NCBI RefSeq assembly: GCF_029227855.1
Contig: NZ_CP074356.1
Reading direction: 5' to 3' (one strand)
From: Escherichia coli
Lineage (GTDB): Bacteria > Pseudomonadota > Gammaproteobacteria > Enterobacterales > Enterobacteriaceae
DNA length: 64,000 nucleotides
This document shows, piece after piece, positions 8,184-61,208 of this stretch. The notes beneath the pieces were generated by a model that saw only the letters and a program-made list of their open reading frames with translations, had not been told where the DNA came from and did not search any database. The stretch's first letter is position 1. Every line of letters begins with the position of its first letter. A program made the translations under genes and the position numbers.

Positions 8184-9533
8184 TTGGCGGGTTTTAACAT
8201 CAAACATTGGTTTGCAGATGGCGCGTTTCGCACCATTATTCGCAATAGCGCCTGGTTAGGCTCCAGTAATGTCGTGAGCGCTTTGCTGGGTCTGTTGGCG
8301 CTCTCGTGTGCCGGTAAAGGGATGACGCCCGCCATGTTTGGCGTACTGGTGATTGTGCAATCGTACGCCAAGTCGATCAGCGATTTTATTAAGTTTCAGA
8401 CATGGCAGTTGGTGGTGCAGTACGGAACGCCAGCCTTGACCAACAATAATCCGCAGCAATTTCGCAATGTCGTCTCATTTTCCTTCTCGTTGGATATCGT
8501 CAGCGGCGCGGTGGCGATTGTCGGCGGCATTGCCTTACTCCCTTTTCTTTCCCATTCATTAGGTCTGGATGACCAAAGCTTTTGGCTGGCAGCGCTGTAT
8601 TGCACGCTCATTCCTTCAATGGCTTCCTCCACGCCGACCGGCATTCTGCGTGCGGTAGATCGCTTCGACTTAATTGCTGTACAGCAGGCGACGAAACCTT
8701 TTCTGCGCGCAGCGGGGAGCGTCGTTGCCTGGTATTTTGACTTTGGTTTTGCGGGTTTTGTTATTGCCTGGTACGCCTCGAATCTTGTTGGCGGCACCAT
8801 GTACTGGTGGTTTGCCGCACGTGAATTACGCCGCAGAAATATCCATAACGCGTTCAAATTGAATCTGTTTGAGTCTGCCCGACACATCAAAGGCGCGTGG
8901 AGTTTTGTCTGGTCAACCAACATTGCCCATTCCATCTGGTCGGCGCGTAATTCGTGCAGCACAGTGTTGGTGGGGATCGTGTTAGGACCCGCTGCCGCCG
9001 GGTTATTTAAAATCGCCATGACATTCTTCGACGCCGCCGGAACGCCAGCGGGTTTACTGGGTAAAAGTTTTTACCCAGAGGTGATGCGTTTAGATCCGCG
9101 CACCACCAGACCGTGGTTGTTAGGCGTGAAGTCCGGTTTACTGGCGGGCGGAATCGGTATTCTGGTGGCGCTCGCGGTGTTGATCGTCGGCAAGCCGCTC
9201 ATTTCGCTGGTGTTTGGCGTTAAGTATCTCGAAGCGTATGACCTGATTCAGGTGATGCTGGGCGCAATTGTGATCTCGATGCTGGGCTTCCCTCAGGAGT
9301 CATTGCTATTGATGGCGGGAAAACAGCGCGCTTTTCTCGTGGCGCAAACCATCGCCTCAATCGGCTACATCGTATTGCTGTTCATGTTCTGTCATCTGTT
9401 TGGCGTGCTGGGGGCTGCATTTGCTTACTTCGGTGGGCAATGTCTGGATGTGGTGTTCTCGCTAATTCCGACCTTAAAGGCATTTTTTCAGCGCCATTCC
9501 TTGCTTTATAACTCAGCCGGAGAGAAATCCTGA
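8184..9533 (+). CDS. yghQ: YghQ, polytopic inner-membrane protein, MOP/Wzx-like putative flippase (449 aa as called from TTG start; first in-frame ATG is codon 47)
   Basis: Many hydrophobic segments throughout; N-terminus resembles polysaccharide-transporter family; stop overlaps downstream ATG (ATGA). Confidence 0.8.
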   Translation: MAGFNIKHWFADGAFRTIIRNSAWLGSSNVVSALLGLLALSCAGKGMTPAMFGVLVIVQSYAKSISDFIKFQTWQLVVQYGTPALTNNNPQQFRNVVSFSFSLDIVSGAVAIVGGIALLPFLSHSLGLDDQSFWLAALYCTLIPSMASSTPTGILRAVDRFDLIAVQQATKPFLRAAGSVVAWYFDFGFAGFVIAWYASNLVGGTMYWWFAARELRRRNIHNAFKLNLFESARHIKGAWSFVWSTNIAHSIWSARNSCSTVLVGIVLGPAAAGLFKIAMTFFDAAGTPAGLLGKSFYPEVMRLDPRTTRPWLLGVKSGLLAGGIGILVALAVLIVGKPLISLVFGVKYLEAYDLIQVMLGAIVISMLGFPQESLLLMAGKQRAFLVAQTIASIGYIVLLFMFCHLFGVLGAAFAYFGGQCLDVVFSLIPTLKAFFQRHSLLYNSAGEKS

Positions 9534-10357
9534 TGATGAGAAAATATTTCCCGCTTGAGGCGAGCGAGCGTCTATTTGTTGCGATTGAAGAAGATGATGT
9601 TGTTGATGCACAGGTCAGTTTGCCGCCGACTATCGCACTAAGTTGTACCACCGAAATCATCCATGATAATTACGCGTTATGCCTGCAATTCTGGCTCAAT
9701 GGCGTCAATCGCCAGGAGTTACTGCGTTTAATATGCAAACAGGCCAAAGGCGATGAGCTGACTGCTGATGAGCGCAAACAATTTAAATACATGCGAGCGC
9801 GCTACAAGCACCTGCGTTTTGCGCAACGGCTGTATTTAAAAAAGCATCAGGCCGGATTTTTATTCGGCAAAACGACCGTTTTTTTGGGGCGTTTTCAGGA
9901 CGGCTTTCGTAACGGTAAGAAAAATATTGTGTCGTATTACGGCAACCTGTTACGGGTTTATTTAAGCTCTCCGGTCTGGTCGTTGGTGAACTATTCATTA
10001 CGCCATAGCCAGTTAGAAAGCGTAAGCGGTTTTATTGCCTATCGGCAAAAGCAAATGCATACCCTGAAAGAGATAATTGCCAAATCGCGACTAACTGGCA
10101 GGGAATTTCATGATGTGCGAAAAATCATCAGCCAGCAGGTTTCTTATTACGACACCCTAAGATCGCTTGATCCTGAAAATAAAGAGGCGTTACAGATTTC
10201 CCGCTTCCTCGCCGCCATTAATGGCCTGATGGGGGATAAACACGACGACATGGTGGCGGATGATATGGAAAACCGCCAGTCGTATGATGCACCGATGGCG
10301 CTGGATAGCGATATTCGTCAGCGCTTAGAACTGCTGATTTCGCGTTTTCCGCTATAA
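9533..10357 (+). CDS. Hypothetical soluble protein (274 aa), translationally coupled to yghQ
   Basis: ATG overlaps yghQ stop; no transmembrane segments or signal peptide evident; basic/aromatic-rich helical-looking sequence; no domain recognised by eye. Confidence 0.6.
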   Translation: MMRKYFPLEASERLFVAIEEDDVVDAQVSLPPTIALSCTTEIIHDNYALCLQFWLNGVNRQELLRLICKQAKGDELTADERKQFKYMRARYKHLRFAQRLYLKKHQAGFLFGKTTVFLGRFQDGFRNGKKNIVSYYGNLLRVYLSSPVWSLVNYSLRHSQLESVSGFIAYRQKQMHTLKEIIAKSRLTGREFHDVRKIISQQVSYYDTLRSLDPENKEALQISRFLAAINGLMGDKHDDMVADDMENRQSYDAPMALDSDIRQRLELLISRFPL

Positions 10358-19763: not shown

Positions 19764-21263
19764 ATGAGCATCTTGTACGAAGAGCGTCTTGATGGCGCTT
19801 TACCCGATGTCGACCGCACATCGGTACTGATGGCACTGCGTGAGCATGTCCCTGGACTTGAGATCCTGCATACCGATGAGGAGATCATTCCTTATGAGTG
19901 TGACGGGTTGAGCGCGTATCGCACGCGTCCATTACTGGTTGTTCTGCCTAAGCAAATGGAACAGGTGACAGCGATTCTGGCTGTTTGTCACCGCCTGCGT
20001 GTATCGGTGGTGACCCGTGGTGCAGGCACCGGGCTTTCTGGTGGCGCGCTGCCGCTGGAAAAAGGTGTGTTGTTGGTGATGGCGCGCTTTAAAGAGATCC
20101 TCGACATTAACCCCGTTGGTCGCCGCGCGCGCGTGCAGCCGGGCGTGCGTAATCTGGCGATCTCCCAGGCCGTTGCGCCGCATAATCTCTATTACGCGCC
20201 GGATCCTTCCTCACAAATCGCCTGTTCAATTGGCGGCAATGTGGCGGAAAATGCCGGTGGCGTTCACTGCCTGAAATATGGTCTGACCGTACATAACCTG
20301 CTGAAAATTGAAGTGCAAACGCTGGACGGCGAGGCGCTGACGCTGGGATCGGATGCGCTGGATTCTCCTGGTTTTGACCTGCTGGCGCTGTTCACCGGAT
20401 CGGAAGGTATGCTCGGCGTGACCACCGAAGTGACGGTAAAACTGCTGCCGAAGCCGCCCGTGGCTCGGGTTCTGTTAGCCAGCTTTGACTCGGTAGAAAA
20501 AGCCGGACTTGCGGTTGGTGACATCATCGCCAATGGCATTATCCCCGGCGGGCTGGAGATGATGGATAACCTGTCGATCCGCGCAGCGGAAGATTTTATT
20601 CATGCCGGTTATCCCGTCGACGCCGAAGCGATTTTGTTATGCGAGCTGGACGGCGTGGAGTCTGACGTACAGGAAGACTGCGAGCGGGTTAACGACATCT
20701 TGTTGAAAGCGGGCGCGACTGACGTCCGTCTGGCACAGGACGAAGCAGAGCGCGTACGTTTCTGGGCCGGTCGCAAAAATGCGTTCCCGGCGGTAGGACG
20801 TATCTCCCCGGATTACTACTGCATGGATGGCACCATCCCGCGCCGCGCCCTGCCTGGCGTACTGGAAGGCATTGCCCGTTTATCGCAGCAATATGATTTA
20901 CGCGTTGCTAACGTCTTTCATGCCGGAGATGGCAACATGCACCCGTTAATCCTTTTCGATGCCAACGAACCCGGTGAATTTGCCCGCGCGGAAGAGCTGG
21001 GCGGGAAGATCCTCGAACTCTGCGTTGAAGTTGGCGGCAGCATCAGTGGGGAACATGGCATCGGGCGCGAAAAAATCAATCAAATGTGCGCCCAGTTCAA
21101 CAGCGATGAAATCACGACCTTCCATGCGGTCAAGGCGGCGTTTGACCCCGATGGTTTGCTGAACCCGGGGAAAAACATTCCCACGCTACACCGCTGTGCT
21201 GAATTTGGTGCCATGCATGTGCATCACGGTCATTTACCTTTCCCTGAACTGGAGCGTTTCTGA
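19764..21263 (+). CDS. glcD: Glycolate oxidase FAD-linked subunit GlcD (499 aa)
   Basis: FAD-binding PCMH-type domain, length and operon context. Confidence 0.92.
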   Translation: MSILYEERLDGALPDVDRTSVLMALREHVPGLEILHTDEEIIPYECDGLSAYRTRPLLVVLPKQMEQVTAILAVCHRLRVSVVTRGAGTGLSGGALPLEKGVLLVMARFKEILDINPVGRRARVQPGVRNLAISQAVAPHNLYYAPDPSSQIACSIGGNVAENAGGVHCLKYGLTVHNLLKIEVQTLDGEALTLGSDALDSPGFDLLALFTGSEGMLGVTTEVTVKLLPKPPVARVLLASFDSVEKAGLAVGDIIANGIIPGGLEMMDNLSIRAAEDFIHAGYPVDAEAILLCELDGVESDVQEDCERVNDILLKAGATDVRLAQDEAERVRFWAGRKNAFPAVGRISPDYYCMDGTIPRRALPGVLEGIARLSQQYDLRVANVFHAGDGNMHPLILFDANEPGEFARAEELGGKILELCVEVGGSISGEHGIGREKINQMCAQFNSDEITTFHAVKAAFDPDGLLNPGKNIPTLHRCAEFGAMHVHHGHLPFPELERF

Positions 21264-50220: not shown

Positions 50221-52179
50221 TTATCCAATATTGTTTTTATAGTCAATGGTTTTTTTTATTAAGTTATAAGAAGCGATAGGGTTTCGTTTAACGCTTTTGA
50301 TAAAGACAAACGCCAAAGCTGTTTTCTTATTCTCTTGAGATAACATGATATGATTGGAGTTTAATAGACCAATAGGAGATTCAATATTTTTAGTTTTAAA
50401 AATACTGTTGTGAGTAAAATATAAGTTACATTCTTTTTTTGCGAACTTTTCGAACCCCAAATCACTTAATAATATTATGTCTGAATAGTCTTCAGTATAT
50501 ACTAAATTTGGATTGATAAGGTTGTATTCTTTATTCGGGTATTTAGAAACTAAAGTGTCTAGCAATAATTTGTCTGAGACAATATCTATACAATCAAAAC
50601 AATCGGTGTTGTCTAAGAGTGTATATAATTTATGTTGATTTATGTCTTTATACCCTTTCGCCCAGATAAGTAATCTTTTTGATAATTTATCCTTTAGTCT
50701 ATTGTTTCCTGCTTTTACTCTACGATAAAGTAAATCAGAATTCTCTCTGAATCCAAGAGGGTCTAATATATAATCATTCGAATCAATTGGTGACTTGAAA
50801 CTATAAAGAATTGGTTTGTTTGCTTTTTGTCTTATTCTATATAGATCATTTATGTGCAAGCTTAATGATTCATCAAAAATAATAAGTTCTGGGTTTTCTT
50901 TTGAAATGATTTTCAAAATGTCATCTTGAGCGAGATTTTGCGGGAGAATATGTTCACAAAATTGACTTACTTCTGAACCATATCGACCTGAATAAATAAA
51001 GACAGGGATAATATTACTATCATTATATAAATTAAAATAGAACTTAATTGCATGCACAGTGGATGCAGCAATTAACACTTTTACAGGGGTTATCGGTAAT
51101 GAAATATCCTGTTCATAAATCTCGTATGGGATATAATCCCTTTTATCATGTTCTGATTTAAATGTTATTCCTCTATATATTTTTTTCTCTAATCCCGTAA
51201 TAAATCTTTCAACGTGTCGCAACCCTTTTAAAAAATCCTTTCTTAATATGTTACATGCTGTTTCAAAACAGCTTGGGTTTACTGGTTGATTAATAAACTC
51301 AATGATTTCTTTTGCGAAGGTTGATATATCCCCATAAGGAACAACCCTAATAATTTCAGGAGGGGCTATTTCTGAGTTTCCGCCAACATCCCAACAGACT
51401 ACAGGTGTATATGTCGATAAAGACTCCAAAATAGCCATTGAGCAGTTTTCAAATTTGCTTAGAGATATAGCTACCTTAGCTCGGGATAGAAAATTAAATT
51501 TTTCATTTCCCTCAATATGTTCAAGGAAAGAAACATTAGAATACTCTTTAGATAAAGTGATTTTTTTCTCTTGTTTTCCGACAATAAAAATACTTAGATC
51601 ATTAGGTAAATTTTTTATGAGTGGTTCAATAAATTCAATTCCCTTAAGGTTGTTAAATCTGCTGAAGAAAATTACATCTATGTCTTTTTCAATTACACTT
51701 TTAAGAAGGTCTTTTTTTAGTGTGATTGGATTTTTATATACATGTATATTTGTAATGTCTAAATCATCTTTAAGTAGTTCTAACATGCCGTAAGATGGAG
51801 AGGAGACGGCTTTGGCTTTATAAATCGCTCTGCATTCATCTGAAAAACGAGCCTCATCAGGCTCTTCATTGATGATTCTTTTATATAGATGAAAGGGGCA
51901 ATGTAATCTGATATGTATATTTGCATCTTTTGGGAATAAAAGAGTTGGAGATTGTGATTCTGCTGCTTCAATTATTGTAGTGTGGTTTATTGCTTTTTTA
52001 TTTAAATTTAGATACGTGAATTTTCTAAAGTCTGGCATCGACATATCGTAAGGCTTTACAAACTCTTTATATGGGAAATCATAAACTTCATTGACTGTTT
52101 TAATATAATTAGTCACACCATTGCTGAATTCTGGATTATAGATAAAGTGATTGATGGATATTCTTTCAAGAGATTTCAT
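50221..52179 (-). CDS. Capsule region-2 protein (652 aa), probable glycosyltransferase (GT-B/GT4-like N-terminal part)
   Basis: Segment ...AISLSKFENCSMAILESLSTYTPVVCWDVGGNSEI resembles the GT4 E-x7-E/nucleotide-sugar binding region; AT-rich; between kpsT and the 800-aa gene. Confidence 0.6.
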   Translation of the reverse strand: MKSLERISINHFIYNPEFSNGVTNYIKTVNEVYDFPYKEFVKPYDMSMPDFRKFTYLNLNKKAINHTTIIEAAESQSPTLLFPKDANIHIRLHCPFHLYKRIINEEPDEARFSDECRAIYKAKAVSSPSYGMLELLKDDLDITNIHVYKNPITLKKDLLKSVIEKDIDVIFFSRFNNLKGIEFIEPLIKNLPNDLSIFIVGKQEKKITLSKEYSNVSFLEHIEGNEKFNFLSRAKVAISLSKFENCSMAILESLSTYTPVVCWDVGGNSEIAPPEIIRVVPYGDISTFAKEIIEFINQPVNPSCFETACNILRKDFLKGLRHVERFITGLEKKIYRGITFKSEHDKRDYIPYEIYEQDISLPITPVKVLIAASTVHAIKFYFNLYNDSNIIPVFIYSGRYGSEVSQFCEHILPQNLAQDDILKIISKENPELIIFDESLSLHINDLYRIRQKANKPILYSFKSPIDSNDYILDPLGFRENSDLLYRRVKAGNNRLKDKLSKRLLIWAKGYKDINQHKLYTLLDNTDCFDCIDIVSDKLLLDTLVSKYPNKEYNLINPNLVYTEDYSDIILLSDLGFEKFAKKECNLYFTHNSIFKTKNIESPIGLLNSNHIMLSQENKKTALAFVFIKSVKRNPIASYNLIKKTIDYKNNIG

Positions 52180-52372
52180 AATTTCTTTGCTCCTAACTAT
52201 TTGGGGTTATTGAAAATTATTTTTTGTTTGTTTCCACCTAAGGTTTATTTAGGATGATTGTGTAACTAACTATGTCTTAATTTACGTTTGATAAAATCAT
52301 TATTGTGTTGATAAATGTGATTAAAATAATATCATTTAAATTAAGTGTTAAGGTGCGTCAATATTATCGGCA

Positions 52373-53062
52373 TTACAGGTTAAATTCAGGGAGACATATG
52401 TTTTTTTCATCATGTCTATATTTGTCTATGGCAAGTGATATATCCTTGTAATATAAGGTGTGATTATTCCTCCCAAAGTAAATGGCCTCATCGCAATATT
52501 CTTTTAATAAGTTAAGACTATGAGAGACTATCAAAAAATTTGATTTTTCATGTTTTTCCCTAAATAAGGAAAAACATTTCTCTTTAAATCTGGCGTCTCC
52601 CACAGCCATAACTTCATCAACAAGATAATAATCAAAATCAAATGCCATGCTGAGTCCAAATCCTAACCGAGAACGCATGCCAGAAGAATATGTTTTTATT
52701 GGCATGTCAAAGTATTTCCCCAGTTCGGAAAATTCCTCTACAAATGAAACCTTATCTTGCAGCTCATCTTTTTTAGCATAAAGTCTTGCAACAAATTTAA
52801 CATTTTCACGCCCTGTCAGACTGCCTTGAAAACCACCAGCTAAACCTACTGGCCATGAAATGGTTTGATCAGTAAGTATTCTCCCCTTATCTGGTCGATC
52901 TATACCACCTATTATTCGAAGCAATGTTGATTTACCTGCACCATTGCGTCCAACTAAAGCAACACTTTTTCCTGTGGGTAATTCAATATTTAAATCTTTA
53001 AAAACATAATGTCTTCCTTTAGGTGTACGATATGATTTGGTGAGATTCTCAATACGTATCAT
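52373..53062 (-). CDS. kpsT: Capsule export ABC transporter ATP-binding protein KpsT (229 aa)
   Basis: Track ORF trimmed to MIRIENLTKSYRT; Walker A GRNGAGKST; ABC signature YSSGMRSRL; Walker B YYLVDE. Confidence 0.9.
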   Translation of the reverse strand: MIRIENLTKSYRTPKGRHYVFKDLNIELPTGKSVALVGRNGAGKSTLLRIIGGIDRPDKGRILTDQTISWPVGLAGGFQGSLTGRENVKFVARLYAKKDELQDKVSFVEEFSELGKYFDMPIKTYSSGMRSRLGFGLSMAFDFDYYLVDEVMAVGDARFKEKCFSLFREKHEKSNFLIVSHSLNLLKEYCDEAIYFGRNNHTLYYKDISLAIDKYRHDEKNICLPEFNL

Positions 53063-53838
53063 GAGGTTAACATAGCCTCCTCTTTGAAACGGTAAAGGCA
53101 AAGTCCTACGAAAAACACTACTAAAGAAAAAAATGCAAGATAATTAATACTAACACCTTCACTTATATATCCCGGTACAACAGATTGGCGACTTAACTCC
53201 ACAACATGTACTAAAGGATTCCATAATAAATATCCCCAGTATATTTTAGGGATAGAATGGAGAGGAAACATTACGCAAGATATGAAATAAAGAGGTTTAA
53301 TCATTATGGGCAAAAATTTTTCCGTTTCTGGGAAAGTTTTACCTAACACCATGAAAATTAAACCTATACCAAGAGAAAATATAATAAGTAATCCCCAAGT
53401 TGCAGCGAGTATAATGATGTTTAAAAATGAAAATTCTTCTCCAAGTAGACCTACAATTGACATGAGGATTATGTAAACACCACTATATATTAATGCTTCA
53501 AGAAGGGTTCGTGAAATTATGGTGTCAATAGGCTTTATAGGCCTGTAATTAAATAAGCCCTGATTAGAGTTTATTGCTCCAATAGAGCGGACAGCAATAT
53601 TACTAAAAAGAAAATAAGGGATAAGTCCGTTTAGAAGAAACACTGGGAACGATATATCTGGCATAGTTCTATGCATAATATATCCAAATATACCAATCAA
53701 GATTATCAAATGTGCTGTTGGCTCAAGGAGTGCCCATAAATACCCCAGACGATATTTACCAAAACGAGTCTTAATTTCACGAAGAAATAAAGCTTTTACT
53801 GCTGCTATTTGAACTTCAAAACCACTTCTTCTAGCCAT
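53059..53838 (-). CDS. kpsM: Capsule export ABC-2 permease KpsM (259 aa)
   Basis: Track ORF trimmed to MARRSGFEVQ; ABC-2 polytopic permease; immediately upstream of kpsT with overlapping stop/start. Confidence 0.9.
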   Translation of the reverse strand: MARRSGFEVQIAAVKALFLREIKTRFGKYRLGYLWALLEPTAHLIILIGIFGYIMHRTMPDISFPVFLLNGLIPYFLFSNIAVRSIGAINSNQGLFNYRPIKPIDTIISRTLLEALIYSGVYIILMSIVGLLGEEFSFLNIIILAATWGLLIIFSLGIGLIFMVLGKTFPETEKFLPIMIKPLYFISCVMFPLHSIPKIYWGYLLWNPLVHVVELSRQSVVPGYISEGVSINYLAFFSLVVFFVGLCLYRFKEEAMLTS

Positions 53839-53865
53839 TTGAGATATAACCTTAATATATTTTGG

Positions 53866-53877
53866 TACGCTACCGCC
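53866..53877 (-). promoter_or_regulatory. ops (GGCGGTAG) element in kpsM leader; RfaH antitermination site
   Basis: Plus-strand ctaccgcc (reverse complement GGCGGTAGCGT) about 30 nt upstream of the kpsM ATG on the coding strand. Confidence 0.5.
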
Positions 53878-54247
53878 CTTGGCTCTAGCTACCAGCATGC
53901 TCGGGCGTACCATATGAGACAAACCAGAATGGACAGATAAATATTTCGTCTGGTATTAGTTTGTCTTTTCTTTACGAAAATACTTATAGATTGGACAATG
54001 AAAAATTTGGTTTAAGGCAGTCCAACCTATGTAATGTTATTGAAACATCCTGCTAATAATCTTAAATTTAATGTTTCATTAAGTTCTATCAATTTAAACA
54101 CATTGATTTGCGAATTCTATCATTTAGACTTACAGATAACTCCAGTGTTTAATATGTAAACATGCCTCATAAATTGCAAGGTAGATTGCAGGTTGCTAAT
54201 CTTTTGTTACTTATATAAAATCTGTTTTGTTTATTTTATATCAAATT

Positions 54248-55480
54248 TTATTTATTGTTCAATGCAGAATTGGTTTCTAATGTAATAGTGTCGCAGTGTA
54301 ACTGTGACTCCCCATAATAAACCCCATTAACCTGCGTCTTCACCAATAAATACCCCCGAAACTTCTTAAACAGTTTCATATCCGGTTTAAAATCGGCCTG
54401 CCAGAACTGGTGCAAATGCCCTTGATACGTCAAGCCTTTGATGTCGTACAGGGCATTGCCCATCACTTTGAGTGGTTTGTTATGAATCAGCGCAGAGATC
54501 CCCGCCGTACTGTTAATCGTCACTACCGCTTTTGCATGGCGTAATAATTCCGGCATCGGGAGATCGTGCACATAAATGACTCGCTCATCTAAGCCATATT
54601 CCTTACTCAATCGCTTAATTAATGGTCGATAGAGTCTGTGACCACGATCCATCGGATGATGTTTGATCACCAAATAACTTTCTTTCGGCGCTTTACGTGA
54701 AAATGAGTACATGACTTCATTAATATAGTCACGCACATCGTTATAATTACTGTGGTTACGAATCTGGCTATCGTTATATACCTGCAAAACGGCAAGATAA
54801 TAACGCTGGTCCAGCTCGTTCATTAACCTCGGTAATACCTTACGCTGTGTTACCTTGTAAAGTTGCTTGCGCCAGTATGCACGAACCCAGCAACGAGCCT
54901 CATACCAGGGGGAAAACGATTTATGGTGGCGGTAGCGAGGGAACTCATGGCGGTAATGCCAGCCCATCAGGTAATACCACATCGCATGACCTATACGTTT
55001 CATCGTTGAAGGTTTAAAGTTCTCAACGTGCGGCGTAGGCATATCTGGTAACTTACGATAAAAATCCGGATCGCGCGGTAGCGATGAATATGCGTTTACT
55101 CCGCCTTCTTCAACGGTAATAAATTGCGGGCGTAAATATCCTTCCTCAAATGCCAGAAAGCGGATCCCTTTCGACTTTGCCCAACGTTTTGCTTCTTTGT
55201 GCAATGGGCGGCAGTCACCAAAGCAGAGGATGGTATCAAAGTCATATTGCCGGTGGAGATCCCGTAACCATCCGGGGAACTCTTTCGGCGTTTGGTAGTA
55301 AGCCAGGTATTGTCGATGGCGGCAGTAAAAACGATCCCCACCGTTGAATACAACATTCACAGCGTTACGTCCTAATGACTCTAACCATTCGGCGACGTCA
55401 TTGAAAAAAGGTCCCATCGGCCCCTGCAATAGCAGATATTTTTTACCGGATAATAAAACGGTTAGAGCATTACCTTGCAT
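54248..55480 (-). CDS. kpsS: Capsule biosynthesis protein KpsS (410 aa)
   Basis: N-terminus MQGNALTVLLSGKKYLLLQGPMGPFF; Capsule_synth-type protein downstream of kpsC. Confidence 0.88.
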   Translation of the reverse strand: MQGNALTVLLSGKKYLLLQGPMGPFFNDVAEWLESLGRNAVNVVFNGGDRFYCRHRQYLAYYQTPKEFPGWLRDLHRQYDFDTILCFGDCRPLHKEAKRWAKSKGIRFLAFEEGYLRPQFITVEEGGVNAYSSLPRDPDFYRKLPDMPTPHVENFKPSTMKRIGHAMWYYLMGWHYRHEFPRYRHHKSFSPWYEARCWVRAYWRKQLYKVTQRKVLPRLMNELDQRYYLAVLQVYNDSQIRNHSNYNDVRDYINEVMYSFSRKAPKESYLVIKHHPMDRGHRLYRPLIKRLSKEYGLDERVIYVHDLPMPELLRHAKAVVTINSTAGISALIHNKPLKVMGNALYDIKGLTYQGHLHQFWQADFKPDMKLFKKFRGYLLVKTQVNGVYYGESQLHCDTITLETNSALNNK

Positions 55481-55514
55481 AAATAATTTCCGTAATAGTC
55501 AACTATGAAATTGT

Positions 55515-57542
55515 TTAGCCAAATCTGACCTTGCAGAACATAATTAATTTGCGGTAATAACGTATTACTCGCCCCGCTTTTTTTCTGGTAATAAACAACG
55601 GCTTGCGCGGCGTCTGGATCAAATATTCCGCCGCCTCTTCAACCGTAATAGGTTGTAGCCGTGTTGGGTGGATATAGGTTGGATAAACAATCAACGCCTG
55701 ATAGATCAAATCTGCTAACGTTAATTTTTGCTCGCGGCGCGGGCAGTGATGTTCATCAACGGTTAAACCCCAACCGGCATAGAAGGGCAGGCCGTAACAA
55801 TGAACTTGCTTGCCATGTAATAACGCTTCAAACCCGGACAATGATGTCATGGTGTGCACTTCATCTGCGCGCTGAATGCATTGAATAATATCTGCGTCCA
55901 GTGCCTGATAATCAGCGAGTTCAGCAATTAGTTCTGCCGGAATGTCGCCCTTGCGATTCCCCACCAGTACATCCGGGTGCGGTTTATAAACAATGTAGGC
56001 GTGCGGATTACGCTCGCGTACTGTGCGTAATAACTCAAGGTTGCTCTTAATCGAGACAGTGCCTGTTTTAATAGAGGCATCGTCCTCTACCTGACCCGGC
56101 ACCAGGATAACTTTTTTATCTTTGGCTTCGGCTGGTAGAGAGAAATTGGCTCCCAGGTTGTACTTACTCAGTTTGCTTTCAACCAGTCGCTGGCGTAATT
56201 TTTCAGCTCGCATCTGCTGCGCCAGCGTTAACTGGCTGTGATTAAGCAGGACTTCCAGGTCGCTGGGGCGCGTGGCGTCATAGTAGATCCCGCGTTTATC
56301 CAGTACCAACGATAGCGGCGGCAGCAGGTCAGAGCCAAGTCCGGATGAACGCAGAAAACCATCTTCCATTCGCCATAACGGCAGTGATTTTTGTTGCGCT
56401 TCGGCTAGCCATTGCTGTTCTCCCTTTACACCCCATACCACGCAAGCCGTCGCCGCAGTACAGCGGCGTGAATAACTCAGTCTGTTTGTTGCGGTACGCA
56501 AGAAAGGTTTCAGGATTGCCGACTTCCACAGCGTTAAGCCTGGCGACCATAAATAGCCATTACGCTGTTGCTGATGGTTGCGCTGTAATTGCAGCCATTG
56601 CAGTACGGTAAACAGATCGCTTGCGGCCCCCGTGAGCGGGTCGATATAGCGACAGTAACGCAGGTATGCAGCGGCAAAAAGTTCTTCCAGCGTGGCAGAA
56701 CCGCGTCGGGCAGATAACAAAGCGGACTGCGGATGGCGATCGTCGGTTAAGCCCCAGCCTGCATACCAGGGCTGGCCGAAACATGTTACTGGTTTTCCTG
56801 CCAGCAAGGCTTCAAAGCCGTATTGGGATGTCACGACGTAAACCCGGGAAACGTGTCGCAACAGCGACTGCGGGCTGACATTCTCGGCAATCAAACGTAC
56901 TCGTTGCGTGGCGCGCAGATCAGCGAAATAACCTGTTTTCTTTCCTTCCAGGACATCCGGATGCACCTTCACCCAAATTTCGGCTTGAGGATTTTCCGCC
57001 ATCGCGGCTTCCAGCATGGCAGCAAACTCATGCGGGCCAGCATTGCCATACGTCACTGACATATCATTAAATGTCTGATCGACAACCAGAACGATGTCTG
57101 AACGTTCTGACTCATCAGCCACAAACGCAGGTGCCAGGTTATATTTCGACAAATCCCCGGTCACGATGGTGTGCATCGCTTCTCTGGCCAGGCTTATCAG
57201 AGCTGTATTTCCGGCTTTATCCTGTACCAGTTTCTCCAGTGCTGAAGGCTTGCTGGCATCGTAGTAAATGCCACAATCATCCACCACCAGAGAAAGCGGC
57301 GGCTCGCCATTGACGCCAAGATCCAGCGAACGCACAAATCCATCTTCCAGACGAATGACGGGTTTTCCCGCTGCTTTGGCGATGGCGACTGGTTTCGCCG
57401 CGCTGGGACGATGTCCCCACACGGCGATAGCATCAACTTCTTGTGGAACAGGGCGCAGCAGAGAAAGTTTCTGGCACGGTTGCGCCAGAAATTTCTCCAG
57501 ATGCGGAATACGCCAGATACCGGACGAGAAAATGCCAATCAT
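55515..57542 (-). CDS. kpsC: Capsule biosynthesis protein KpsC (675 aa), beta-Kdo transferase
   Basis: Duplicated domains each with HPDV and FYAGWGLT motifs; 675 aa; overlaps kpsU stop. Confidence 0.92.
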
Positions 57543-58279
57543 GCGTTTTCAGCCAGTTCCTGTGCCATCAGGGCGCGCACTTTTTCCAGGCATGCTGGGG
57601 TGTCGACGCCCGGACCGGTTGCGGCAACCTCAAATGTGCGGATGTTGATCCCCGCGCTCATCAACCGCAGCTGCTCCAGTGATTCTGCCTGCTCCGGCAT
57701 GGACTCCGGTAACTGGCTGTAGTTTTGCAGCACATCACGACGATAAGCATAAATACCGACGTGTTTCAGGTAGCGCGCTTTTTCAGCATTACGCGGATAC
57801 GGAATCGGCGAACGGCTGAAATAAAGTGCATCCTGGCGGGTATTCACAACCACTTTTACCGTGCTTGGCTCGGCCGCTTCTTCGGCAGAAATCGCGTGGC
57901 ATAGCGTTGCCACTGGCAACGCGGGATCGTCACGCATTCCTTGTAGCAGCGTTTCTACATCCCGCGGGCGAATCATTGGTTCATCGCCCTGCAAGTTAAT
58001 GTAGATATCTGCTTCCACCGTATGCATTACCTCGACCAGCCGATCGGTGCCGGATTCATGATCGTTGCGCGTCATGATGGCTTTCCCGCCAAATGCCTGC
58101 ACGGCCTTTTCAACACGCGGGTCGTCTGTTGCCACCCAAACTTCCGCAACGCCCGCCACCTGTAACGCACGCTCGTAAACATGCTGGATCATCGGTTTAC
58201 CAACAATATCGAGCAGTGGCTTACCCGGCAGACGCGATGAGCCATAACGAGCCGGGATGACAATAACAGCTTTGCTCAT
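57539..58279 (-). CDS. kpsU: CMP-Kdo synthetase KpsU (246 aa)
   Basis: N-terminus [22 protein letters not shown] typical of KdsB/KpsU. Confidence 0.92.
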
Positions 58280-58288
58280 TTCAACTCC

Positions 58289-59965
58289 TTACAAAGACAG
58301 AATCACTTTTGCACCCACCGCCAGCTGATAGAGGATGGTGGAAATACCACGGGTAACTTCAATATTTTTCGATTCATATTTCGGTAGAACCATAATCTCA
58401 TCGCCCGGCTTGAGTGAATCCACGTCTTCTGCGTTGACGGCTGCACCGTTCTGACGAATGACGATAATTCTGGCGTTACCCGATTTCTGCGTCAGGCCAC
58501 CACATTTCTCGATGTAATCCTCGGTGGTCATACCCTTCTGCCAGCTCACCGCGTTCGGGAACAGCACTTCGCCATGAACCATAACCAGCGATGTTTTCTC
58601 CGGAATATTGATGACGTCGCCATCTTCAAGCAGAACAGAATCAATATTGGATTCGTTGAGGATCACTTCACCTTTCGGAACCACGGTGCGTGCTTTCGCC
58701 ACAAAGCGGCTGATCAGTTGTGCTTCCTGCATTCGCAGGCTGGCTTCTTCTTTGGTGGATGACTGGGCAGAAAGTGAGGCTTCCTCCAGTTTTTGCAGCG
58801 AGAGATTCAGCATCTCTTTCTGACGCTGAGCTACTGATGGGCGATAAAGCTGAACCGCGTTCATCTGCGACATGCTGTTCGGGCGGACTTTTTCCAGAAC
58901 CGCACGCATAGTGGAACCATAAGGCAGTACCATGGCATGTTCACCGGAGTGCGCGCCTTCAACCCGCACCTGAATGGTGCCGGCATAGCGGTCAGTGCTC
59001 ACGATTAAGGTATCGCCATTTTGCAACATACGGCCTGGTGCAGAACTGATCGGATAGTATTCGCTGCGTTTTTGCAGCCCCTGTTTACGCATAATCGTAA
59101 TGTGAGTCGCGCCAGGCTTAGGGCGCGCCCAGCTCAACGCTTCCGTTACGGGAATGCTGCTTTCGCGGAACTCAAAGTCGTAGCTGTTAAAGACATCGCC
59201 CTGAACGCTGAAAGTATGCTGACGCGGCCCGACGATGATGGTGTCACCATCGGCGAACTGCGAAAGCCCCAGTTTGCCGTTCAGCAGGAAGTCGTACAGG
59301 TTGACGTTGGAGCGCACGCGGTTACCGCGCTTGACCACAATATCAACGTAACTTCCGCGCTCTGGATCAACGCCGCCAGCCTTGATCAGATAATTGAGTA
59401 ACGAATCAGACGTCACACCGCCATACAGACCAGGATTACGCACAAATCCGGTCACGTACACTTTTACTGGCTGCGCCTGTAATAAGGAGGCGTAGACGTT
59501 GACGTTGGACTGGTACACTTCCTTCACTTTTGATGTAACCAGAGTGTTCAACTGACTATTGCTAACCCCGGCAACTTTCACCGGACCAACGTTTGGCAGA
59601 AAAATATTACCTTTGGGATCAATCTGTAATGCACCATCAAAGGTGAACGCACCCCACAAGCGAACCTGAATGCTATCACCCGGATTCAGAATATAGTCAG
59701 GGTTGAATCCTACCGTCGCACCGCTATCCGCGCTGGTGCCGTTGAAAAGTTGAGCACCAAACATACGGCTCATTACCACCGGCGGTGCGGGGGGTGGAGT
59801 ATTGTCGAAGCCGCTCATGTTTTGCGTATCCGACTGTTGCCCGTTCAGAATACCGGTAAGCGGCGCGGCTCCTGTCAGGTTTGGGTCAGCGTTAATATCA
59901 ATGGCCGCGCTGGCCTGCGCCGCGTGACAGGCGGCAATCAGTAAAATTGATTTAAATAATTTCAT
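58289..59965 (-). CDS. kpsD: Capsule export outer-membrane/periplasmic protein KpsD (558 aa)
   Basis: Signal peptide MKLFKSILLIAACHAAQASA; size; region-1 order. Confidence 0.9.
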   Translation of the reverse strand: MKLFKSILLIAACHAAQASAAIDINADPNLTGAAPLTGILNGQQSDTQNMSGFDNTPPPAPPVVMSRMFGAQLFNGTSADSGATVGFNPDYILNPGDSIQVRLWGAFTFDGALQIDPKGNIFLPNVGPVKVAGVSNSQLNTLVTSKVKEVYQSNVNVYASLLQAQPVKVYVTGFVRNPGLYGGVTSDSLLNYLIKAGGVDPERGSYVDIVVKRGNRVRSNVNLYDFLLNGKLGLSQFADGDTIIVGPRQHTFSVQGDVFNSYDFEFRESSIPVTEALSWARPKPGATHITIMRKQGLQKRSEYYPISSAPGRMLQNGDTLIVSTDRYAGTIQVRVEGAHSGEHAMVLPYGSTMRAVLEKVRPNSMSQMNAVQLYRPSVAQRQKEMLNLSLQKLEEASLSAQSSTKEEASLRMQEAQLISRFVAKARTVVPKGEVILNESNIDSVLLEDGDVINIPEKTSLVMVHGEVLFPNAVSWQKGMTTEDYIEKCGGLTQKSGNARIIVIRQNGAAVNAEDVDSLKPGDEIMVLPKYESKNIEVTRGISTILYQLAVGAKVILSL

Positions 59966-59988
59966 CACAAACTCATTCAGCGACAGCG

Positions 59989-61137
59989 TTAGTCTCGGTG
60001 ATCTTCAATAACAGCCAGCAACAGTTTCAGGGTGCCGAACAGCAGGCAGCACACCAGTAACCAGCAGGCGATCAAATAAGGGATATTTGGAAAAGACGAT
60101 TCCTGCGGCAACTGTGGCGAACTGATCACTGACAGCACCTTGAGCTTACGAGCCGCTTCTACACGGGTCTTTTCAATGGAGGTCAGGGTCAGTTTGTACA
60201 GCTCGGTGTTGAACTCTACTTTTGATTTGATTTCTTCAAAATCCACCGCCATACGGTTTAGCTTGTCACCCTGCGGCGCTGTGATTTTGCTTTTTTCTTC
60301 GTCAATTTGTGCCTGCAATGACTGAATCGCATTACGCGCACTCACAACTTGCGGGGCGTCCTCACGCAGATACGTCAGCAAGTTCCGCAGGTCCGCTTCC
60401 ATCTGGATCTTCTGGCCCATCAGCGTATTCACTAACGTGCTCGCCGCCTGTGCCTGTGCCTGTGGATCCAGAACGTTGTTGTTGTCTTGATAAGAGAGCA
60501 ATTCCGCTTTGCTGGCGTCCAGACGCTGGCGTGCCTTTTCCATCTCCGTTTCTGCAAAGGCAAGCTGGTCACGCGCGATGCGATGTGACATCTCATTGAT
60601 AAAGCGCTCTGACTCTTTCAGCACGGTTTGGTTAAACTTAAGCGCAAATTCCGGGCTAAAGCCCTGCGTCTGAATATTCAGTAATCCGGTTTTATCGTCA
60701 TACGAGACGTTGATACGGTCCTTGTAGTACTTCAGGAAGCCTTCTGCGGTTTCATCCTTGCTAAGATGATTAAGAAAATCGAGCCCGCTGTGGCTAAACG
60801 CTTCACGAAAATTTAGTTGCTTATCCAGCGCCGCCAGCATATCCGGCGAGTTGATGTACTCTTTCAGATACAACGCATCTTCTGCGGAACTGGGGTTAGA
60901 GGCACCCAGAAGCAGACCAAAATTCAGGCTGCCGCTGTTTAAATCATCCGAGCGTTTAATGGCGACTTTCGACTCGCTCATATAGCGAGGCTGGCTGAAG
61001 ATAGCCAGATAGATCAGCAGCACCGCCATCGGTGCCAGAATGATGATTTTCGCCAGGTGTTTTTGGATATCTGCCAGTGAGATGGCAGACAGACGAGCAC
61101 GCATCCAGGATACGGCAGACTTCACTTTTATCAACAT
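59989..61137 (-). CDS. kpsE: Capsule export inner-membrane protein KpsE (382 aa)
   Basis: N-terminal TM, long coiled-coil periplasmic region, C-terminal TM; 382 aa. Confidence 0.9.
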   Translation of the reverse strand: MLIKVKSAVSWMRARLSAISLADIQKHLAKIIILAPMAVLLIYLAIFSQPRYMSESKVAIKRSDDLNSGSLNFGLLLGASNPSSAEDALYLKEYINSPDMLAALDKQLNFREAFSHSGLDFLNHLSKDETAEGFLKYYKDRINVSYDDKTGLLNIQTQGFSPEFALKFNQTVLKESERFINEMSHRIARDQLAFAETEMEKARQRLDASKAELLSYQDNNNVLDPQAQAQAASTLVNTLMGQKIQMEADLRNLLTYLREDAPQVVSARNAIQSLQAQIDEEKSKITAPQGDKLNRMAVDFEEIKSKVEFNTELYKLTLTSIEKTRVEAARKLKVLSVISSPQLPQESSFPNIPYLIACWLLVCCLLFGTLKLLLAVIEDHRD

Positions 61138-61208
61138 GTAACGATTATCAAAGTTTCAGTGGGGCGCAAACTCAATGAGAGACTAACCTCTCGCACCCCG
61201 TTGCTTAA

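Follow-up and report, generated by a model that had tools for sequence, protein, structure and literature searches.

In extraintestinal Escherichia coli, group 2 capsules are among the major determinants of virulence. The model of their regulation assigns region 1 to promoter PR1, and regions 3 and 2 to promoter PR3 acting with RfaH and the operon polarity suppressor (ops) element. This model was built on the canonical convergent layout of the locus. What becomes of it when kpsM and kpsT instead follow kpsS on the same strand? Such a locus lies in a 64-kb stretch of E. coli DNA (contig NZ_CP074356.1), hereafter the window, whose coordinates and strands are used throughout; its minus strand is the kps coding strand. 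The original prediction placed an AT-rich leader of about 410 bp between kpsS and kpsM, with ops roughly 30 nt before kpsM. The spacer occupies exactly the interval given, at 409 nt and 31.1% GC. Sequence comparison confirms that its ops and JUMPstart (just upstream of many polysaccharide-associated gene starts) element is real and part of a deeply conserved kpsM-leader module. The element probably recruits RfaH for full-length transcription of kpsMT and the serotype genes.

In the canonical K1 and K5 group 2 loci, transcription from PR3 crosses a 741-nt 5′ untranslated region (UTR) before reaching a JUMPstart/ops element about 28-33 nt upstream of kpsM (Stevens et al. 1997, reviewed in PMC8960920). 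PR3 itself lies about 741 bp upstream of kpsM, next to yghD, and region 2 expression requires both RfaH and ops (PMC8960920). Canonical kpsMT stand at the yghD edge, facing region 1 and reading toward region 2, whereas in the window they lie directly behind kpsS, with region 2 distal. All kps genes occupy the minus strand in the order kpsFEDUCS, kpsMT, region 2, and region 1 was thus correctly placed immediately upstream in the same direction. These assignments come from open reading frames (ORFs), Pfam matches, and the RefSeq annotation of the near-identical strain MRSN346647 (NZ_CP018206.1), which differs from the window at four bases over 19.5 kb. The surrounding gene order (hyb, gss, pitB, glc, sslE, gsp, kps, pheV, yqgA) is that of the E. 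coli chromosome.

Nine K loci with the order region 1, region 3, region 2 have been described as "atypical G2" (Gladstone et al., Nat Microbiol 2026; PMC13171598). The window fits this group: a complete kpsFEDUCS set is followed directly by kpsMT, and region 2 lies outside regions 1 and 3. The "KL105" entry of Supplementary file 12 in that study has the gene lengths and the 409-nt kpsS-kpsM gap of the window; the label is provisional and the match is on sizes only. The text of the paper makes no mention of promoter, ops, or RfaH (PMC13171598). The kTYPr paper reports that kpsMT rearrangements are frequent, and describes rearranged group 2A clusters (PMC13171606).

The evidence for the element is direct. 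On the kpsM coding (non-template) strand, GGCGGTAGCGT(A) occupies 53877-53866, and 31 nt separate its 8-mer core, GGCGGTAG, from the kpsM ATG (53838). Read on that strand, the leader runs ...GAGCATGCTGGTAGCTAGAGCCAAGGGCGGTAGCGTACCAAAATATATTAAGGTTATATCTCAAATG. The upstream JUMPstart half, CTGGTAGCTAGAGCCAA, stands before GGGCGGTAGCG and aligns to positions 1-25 of the Rfam covariance model RF01707, which is matched over its full length (model 1-38; 32.8 bits, E 5.7e-4). Eleven of the 12 positions of the ops consensus, GGCGGTAGCGTG, are present. Moreover, 21 contiguous bases, GCCAAGGGCGGTAGCGTACC, are identical to the kpsM leader of K1 strain NU14, and the alignment runs on into kpsM at 77% identity. 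Because nucleotide identity to the common kpsM alleles is only about 70%, this unbroken run counts in favor of a functional ops. The element thus has the core, strand, and distance to the kpsM ATG of its canonical counterpart and, as there, precedes kpsMT and then AT-rich serotype genes.

Could a short motif have arisen by chance in intergenic DNA? The core taken by itself is non-significant: the window has three copies of GGCGGTAG where 1.23 are expected, and among 100 shuffled sequences 14 reach three. One further copy lies within glcD, on its coding strand (20789-20796, plus strand), and is an intragenic chance match, like those reported as non-functional in CFT073; the other lies in kpsS, on the wrong strand. 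But the window has no second copy of the exact 12-mer, the covariance model is matched from end to end, homology to the canonical leader continues into kpsM, and the position is conserved across 31 loci. Chance is thereby refuted. On the minus strand, a motif scan of the window found no ops-like sequence within region 1 or ahead of kpsF.

These 31 loci come from a wider comparison. The kpsM leaders of 32 KpsM loci from other Enterobacterales species were compared, and 31 ops-containing leaders, E. coli references included, were aligned (27 from other species). The distance from GGCGGTAG to the kpsM start ranges from 22 to 37 nt (median 29). The core is invariant in all 31 leaders while adjoining bases vary freely, which points to purifying selection on ops. 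The other-species leaders (Phytobacter, Kluyvera, Rahnella, and others) resemble the last ~85 nt of the window spacer, and Phytobacter/Kluyvera-like leaders provide its best alignments (82-95% identity over 39-80 nt). Kluyvera and Phytobacter also hold the closest species-level relatives of the KpsM protein, at 78-79% amino-acid identity. Unlike the window, none of the 32 loci has kpsS in the 3 kb upstream of kpsM.

The closest match to the window leader is on a 2.4-kb contig (QFQM01000458.1) labeled as a metagenome-assembled genome of Flavobacterium psychrophilum. It carries an enterobacterial-type JUMPstart-kpsM-kpsT arrangement, and is probably mis-binned. An outer stem around the JUMPstart (GGUACGC/GCGUACC) was considered and dropped: covariation was not clear by eye across the Phytobacter-like leaders, though some ACGC/GCGU pairing is always possible.

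How common is the arrangement? A chimeric query, joining the conserved 3′ end of kpsS to the canonical JUMPstart-kpsM 5′ end, detects both on one strand within about 850 nt. It identified a co-oriented kpsS-kpsM junction in 74 of 5,426 complete E. coli genomes. The junctions form three classes; upstream of the JUMPstart, no two of these have related spacers. Class A, that of the window, has the 409-nt spacer and comprises 36 genomes. Class C has a 155-nt spacer and at least 17 genomes among those listed, perhaps about 31 if 14 unlisted records also belong to it; its JUMPstart scores 51.9 bits, and GGCGGTAGCGTG lies 30 nt before the ATG. Class B (seven genomes listed) has an 817-nt spacer in which JUMPstart and ops are absent; canonical kpsM homology starts 17 nt before the start codon. 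The finding that two unrelated junction classes, A and C, carry ops at the canonical distance counts for a role of RfaH in these loci.

Within class A, 34 copies are at least 99% identical, and two, termed the A2 variant, are about 83% identical. Across the 34 copies the JUMPstart-to-ATG segment is invariant, and the single nucleotide polymorphism falls upstream. The class A spacer is tied to at least four region 2 gene sets: at least three among the 34 near-identical genomes, and a fourth with A2. The constancy of the JUMPstart-to-ATG segment alongside such differing region 2 sets counts in favor of RfaH loading at ops. The region 2 of the window itself was found in just four of the 5,426 genomes.

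Individual members of the survey deserve description. The class C example L006 (NZ_AP022173.1; junction 9398-9552) has kpsT annotated as frameshifted, and the class C region 2 encodes Stealth plus TagF-type proteins. In the class B example L007 (NZ_CP129252.1; spacer 9371-10187), kpsM is annotated with a GTG start, and region 2 includes a second KpsS/LipB-like gene. A complete class A locus, with an identical spacer and a different region 2 (acyltransferase, GT29, GT2), lies at 13476-41883 of NZ_CP137739.1. This 187-kb record is annotated as an IncHI-type plasmid, yet its kps locus is flanked by chromosomal pheV, yqgA, and speC; it is either a plasmid with a captured pheV island or an assembly chimera. 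Finally, NZ_CP128958.1 has the canonical layout and a region 2 (HAD-hydrolase plus acyltransferase) with about 68% nucleotide identity, over part of its length, to the atypical A2 locus. This kinship indicates that related serotype cassettes occur in both orientations.

The remainder of the spacer tells a different story. In a blastn comparison with the yghD-kpsM region of NU14, the spacer resembles the canonical leader from just ~58 nt before the ATG onward, and the part akin to known kpsM leaders is confined to the final ~60-85 nt. The description of the spacer as a "region-3-type leader" stands for the JUMPstart-to-ATG segment, which has the 21 bases identical to the known leader and the full-length RF01707 match. 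It fails for the other ~335 nt, which are unlike the canonical loci. Against the NU14 region these give chance-level blastn matches only; a distant search of the 5,426 genomes recovers only their own copies in the 36 class A genomes; plasmids hold none besides one copy of the same locus; and the 32 other-species kpsM loci give no match beyond position -85. This part is also unrelated to the class B and class C spacers and to the group 3 upstream region.

PR3 is absent as well. The canonical PR3 segment, the first 429 nt after yghD, is missing from both the spacer and the yghD side of the window, where homology to canonical DNA ends at 45141, 5 nt past the yghD stop. At the opposite end, about 1,700 group 2 genomes match a kpsS 3′ query only to ~54307-54314, beyond which the 36 class A genomes match alone. 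The drop in GC content, from 50.4% in kpsF-kpsS to the level of the spacer, coincides with this junction (~54307). The cassette so delimited (45,142-54,307) is 9.2 kb long with 30.8% GC, and its outer boundaries are those of an ordinary region 2+3 cassette; within it, kpsMT adjoin kpsS and are co-oriented with it.

Other elements were sought in the spacer. Outside the JUMPstart, its most conserved block, in a comparison of the two spacer variants, lies at 53966-53917 and is an interrupted inverted repeat; a structured RNA was rejected here, the hairpin z-scores being -1.7 and -0.6 in the only two sequence variants that exist, both non-significant. Folding of the entire leader (z -2.0) is not compelling for an RNA of 31% GC. 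The only small ORF on the coding strand of the spacer is a 24-codon GTG ORF, with nothing suggestive of a leader peptide.

Together, these features suggest a composite leader. Its terminal ~65-85 nt (about 53839-53920) are a genuine kpsM-type JUMPstart/ops module, and the lineage-specific AT-rich ~335 nt would have taken the place of the canonical PR3 and the 741-nt UTR. By analogy with the established mechanism of RfaH, a polymerase transcribing the module should expose ops on the non-template strand, pause, and recruit RfaH. From there we infer anti-termination: the bound protein would keep Rho and H-NS from ending transcription prematurely anywhere in kpsM, kpsT, or the three serotype genes, and the RfaH-dependent stretch would end at the terminator-like site near 46,690. 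RfaH would probably also help translation to start efficiently at kpsM, which has only a weak Shine-Dalgarno sequence. That elongation through kpsMT and on into the serotype genes depends on RfaH, as predicted, is on this sequence a reasonable expectation. The co-oriented stretch after ops spans ~7.1 kb at ~31% GC. Chromatin immunoprecipitation sequencing in CFT073 shows that RfaH loads at the kps ops and drives polymerase through AT-rich genes covered by H-NS (PMC9765446); in their GC content the distal genes of the window are like the H-NS-bound DNA that needs RfaH in CFT073 kps, which counts for the same expectation.

Several findings weigh against it. The JUMPstart score of 32.8 bits falls short of the Rfam gathering threshold of 35 bits, as compared to 58.5 bits for the canonical element. 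A C.A mismatch in the outer stem pair accounts for the shortfall, together with the A at ops position 12; the orthologous JUMPstart of strain YZ22MPE6, with one stem base different (G at the mismatch site), scores 41.4 bits, and those of the Phytobacter relatives 45-48 bits. Conservation within the 36 genomes could simply reflect a young cassette. Class B lacks ops. In KL112, a locus of ST131 clade C, both PR3 and ops are reported lost, and kpsMT are still transcribed, below the level of region 1 by RNA sequencing (Potterill et al., bioRxiv 10.64898/2025.12.15.689991). Class B and KL112 together indicate that ops is dispensable for kpsMT transcription in co-oriented loci. Lastly, no promoter in the spacer stands out: the best site scores 9.2 against a median shuffled best of 9.1, a non-significant result.

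KL112 resembles the window in that kpsMT follow kpsS on the same strand, region 2 comes last, and PR3 is lost. It differs in the reported loss of ops, which with the JUMPstart is intact in the window, where gsp is also still adjacent and IS1 is absent. No obviously KL112-like allele emerged from the chimeric query among the 5,426 genomes, which gave classes A, B, and C; a search with the HAD-hydrolase gene gave only a relative of canonical layout.

Loci expressed without ops lend themselves to another explanation, in which ops is a non-functional passenger that came along with the kpsM 5′ end as recombination brought in the kpsMT-region 2 cassette, and expression is now RfaH-independent. The class B junctions and KL112 are consistent with it, and the near-identity of the 34 genomes leaves no power to detect selection. 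This explanation is nevertheless improbable, because the intact 12-mer matches the functional kps ops of E. coli base for base and is retained at its canonical distance in two independent junction classes. The core is also invariant in the 27 other-species leaders carrying ops, whose flanks have diverged, and the distal genes are long and AT-rich, as is typical of RfaH-dependent units (PMC9765446).

Recruitment of RfaH at ops thus remains the preferred reading, and the source of the polymerase is a separate matter. It would come from read-through of region 1 (from PR1, upstream of kpsF), from a promoter in the spacer, or from both. We infer that the two sources are about equally likely and not exclusive; the sequence decides for neither. 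The lack of a transcription start in the spacer would leave the ops reading intact, because ops acts on any transcribing polymerase and read-through from kpsS serves equally well.

Read-through in its fullest form would make kpsFEDUCS-kpsMT-region 2 one PR1-driven operon of ~16 kb, with no promoter in the spacer and with a mid-operon ops that RfaH-converts the polymerase for the AT-rich distal half only. This account is tentative. In its favor, the genes are co-oriented, PR3 is absent, no promoter-like site in the spacer outscores shuffles, and a pattern scan finds no intrinsic terminator between kpsS and kpsM. KL112, also without PR3, expresses kpsMT (bioRxiv 10.64898/2025.12.15.689991). In class C, read-through from region 1 is especially plausible, because a 155-nt spacer leaves little room for a promoter. 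On the other hand, ops is preceded by ~370 nt of AT-rich RNA that is not translated, where Rho or H-NS could halt an uncoupled polymerase; and in CFT073 no functional ops element was found outside leader regions (PMC9765446). As for structures at the start of the spacer, an A/U-only hairpin immediately after the kpsS stop, seen in a minimum free energy fold, was rejected as a terminator: it has neither a GC stem nor a U-tract.

A single PR1 unit would place the PR1 regulators (H-NS, SlyA, IHF, and temperature) and RfaH in series on one transcript: the polymerase would cross the GC-normal kpsFEDUCS half without RfaH and acquire it only in the horizontally exchanged, AT-rich half. Such series control is rather unlikely; if true, it would explain why ops was kept but PR3 discarded in two unrelated co-oriented junction classes.

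The spacer promoter was addressed through a consensus scan and a log-odds score for -35, -10, and extended -10 elements, judged against local background and composition-matched shuffles. The consensus scan counts seven promoter-like sites, against 2.9 +/- 1.9 in shuffles. Three candidates, at 54262-54233, ~54120, and 53936-53909, are conserved between the 83%-identical spacer variants, which speaks against a single operon and for two. In the two-operon case, a new promoter in the AT-rich spacer (e.g., at 54,262-54,233 or near 54,120) would replace PR3, and region 1 transcripts would undergo Rho-dependent termination in the spacer. A promoter so close to ops has a precedent in the K96 locus, where one is mapped only ~150 nt upstream (PMC13410964). 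However, the top score equals the median of the shuffle maxima, spurious sites are common in AT-rich DNA, and the spacer shows neither a terminator signature nor the marked excess of C over G expected of a Rho utilization site. The two-operon arrangement is possible, though short of probable. No promoter is claimed here because the best score equals the shuffle median; simple scoring poorly captures extended -10 and AT-rich promoters, and this limit in turn counts against the single operon.

Group 3 capsule loci offer a further comparison. Their leader (K10, K54, K96) has a promoter, ops, and a kpsM′ remnant, with kpsDMTE following after a long UTR, and the K96 capsule requires RfaH and ops (PMC13410964). 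A kpsM-derived ops loads RfaH there, as predicted for the window, and serves a multi-gene kps operon in which the first complete gene is off its canonical position. The differences are also clear. Group 3 retains PR3-bearing DNA by yghD, with a ~530-nt internal deletion, and ~1.3-1.5 kb separate its ops from the first complete gene. Its gene order is kpsD-M-T-E ... kpsC-S, without kpsF and kpsU; the window has both, in a full group 2 region 1 with the order FEDUCS-MT. In group 3 strain M12, which retains the canonical PR3 segment and in which the promoter has been mapped (PMC13410964; PMC8960920), the yghD-kpsM′ region (L005, 8535-9100) equals the canonical PR3 region (L003, 2003-3059) minus ~530 nt of UTR. 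This deletion brought the promoter to ~150 nt from ops.

What do these results add? The JUMPstart/ops of kpsM and the rare, recently described atypical layout were already known. New is the annotation of an ops kept without PR3 in a co-oriented variant, in contrast to the published statement on KL112. The catalogue of atypical co-oriented loci dates only from 2026 and did not extend to regulation; the one study commenting on their regulation reported loss of PR3 and ops. For class A and class C capsules, RfaH is predicted to remain a control point and a possible anti-virulence target, and temperature and H-NS control through PR3 is predicted to be rewired. The practical value is modest: a testable annotation rather than a new mechanism. 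The features discussed are collected in Table 1.

Table 1. Coordinates of the kps locus, its leader, and candidate signals in the window.
Feature	Coordinates	Strand	Remarks
pheV tRNA	~63,387-63,459		
Conserved region 1 (kpsFEDUC and most of kpsS)	54308-62192	-	same direction as kpsMT
kpsF	61209-62192	-	
kpsE	59989-61137	-	
kpsD	58289-59965	-	
kpsU	57539-58279	-	
kpsC	55515-57542	-	
kpsS	54248-55480	-	410 aa; final region 1 gene; Pfam Capsule_synth E 7e-91; RefSeq annotation of MRSN346647 locus
Cassette-specific 3′ end of kpsS	54248-54307	-	junction of region 1 and low-GC cassette
Promoter-like candidate over kpsS stop codon	54233-54262	-	TTGAAC-18-TAAAAT or TTGAAC-16-TGaTATAAA; score 9.2; kept in 83% variant
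kpsS-kpsM spacer	53839-54247	-	409 nt; 31.1% GC
Lineage-specific AT-rich part of spacer	53903-54247	-	28.7% GC; unlike canonical PR3 or 5′ UTR
Extended -10-like candidate	54112-54122	-	TGaTAGAAT in 47-nt block conserved between both spacer variants; score not above shuffles
Interrupted inverted repeat, conserved	53917-53966	-	AGACAAAC(TAATA)CCAGA ... TCTGGTTTGTCT; just 5′ of JUMPstart
Promoter-like candidate	53909-53936	-	CTGTCC-16-TATGGT; conserved between both spacer variants
JUMPstart	53866-53902	-	5′ hairpin half TGGTAGCT plus ops; Rfam RF01707
ops	53866-53877	-	GGCGGTAGCGTA; RfaH recruitment and pause site on non-template DNA strand; exact match unique in window; same as ops of canonical K1 kpsM leader
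kpsM	53059-53838	-	259 aa; ABC-2 permease; ATG 53838-53836
kpsT	52373-53062	-	229 aa; ABC ATPase; 4-nt overlap with kpsM
Serotype-specific region 2	46772-52179	-	30.6% GC; presumed RfaH-dependent distal part of transcription unit
GT4 glycosyltransferase gene (region 2)	50221-52179	-	
Capsule_synth + GT29-like protein gene (region 2)	47812-50214	-	
GalE-type epimerase gene (region 2)	46772-47800	-	
Terminator-like hairpin and T-run 3′ of galE	46666-46695	-	plausible end of kpsMT-region 2 unit; pattern match only

Region 2 itself has features of its own. Between kpsT and its first gene lies a 193-nt untranslated gap (52180-52372, minus strand), with promoter-like matches on both strands. The second gene encodes an 800-amino-acid protein that combines a KpsC/KpsS-type Capsule_synth domain and a GT29-like domain with a tetratricopeptide repeat (TPR) match. 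The mix of Capsule_synth and GT29-like domains suggests a polymer containing Kdo or another ulosonic acid.

Between region 2 and yghD, and convergent with galE, lies a gene for a hexapeptide-repeat acyltransferase (46102-46683, plus strand) that is missing from the published "KL105" gene map. Because it is on the opposite strand, it is outside the control of the kpsM ops. A near-consensus promoter-like sequence, TTGACA-18-TATAGT (45647-45676, plus strand), falls within the ~960-nt AT-rich gap upstream of it (45142-46101). The gene may encode a capsule O-acetyltransferase with its own promoter. At the other end of the locus, the MRSN346647 annotation places a remnant of an IS110-family transposase gene between pheV and kpsF (63003-63185), which is present in other class A and class C genomes too.

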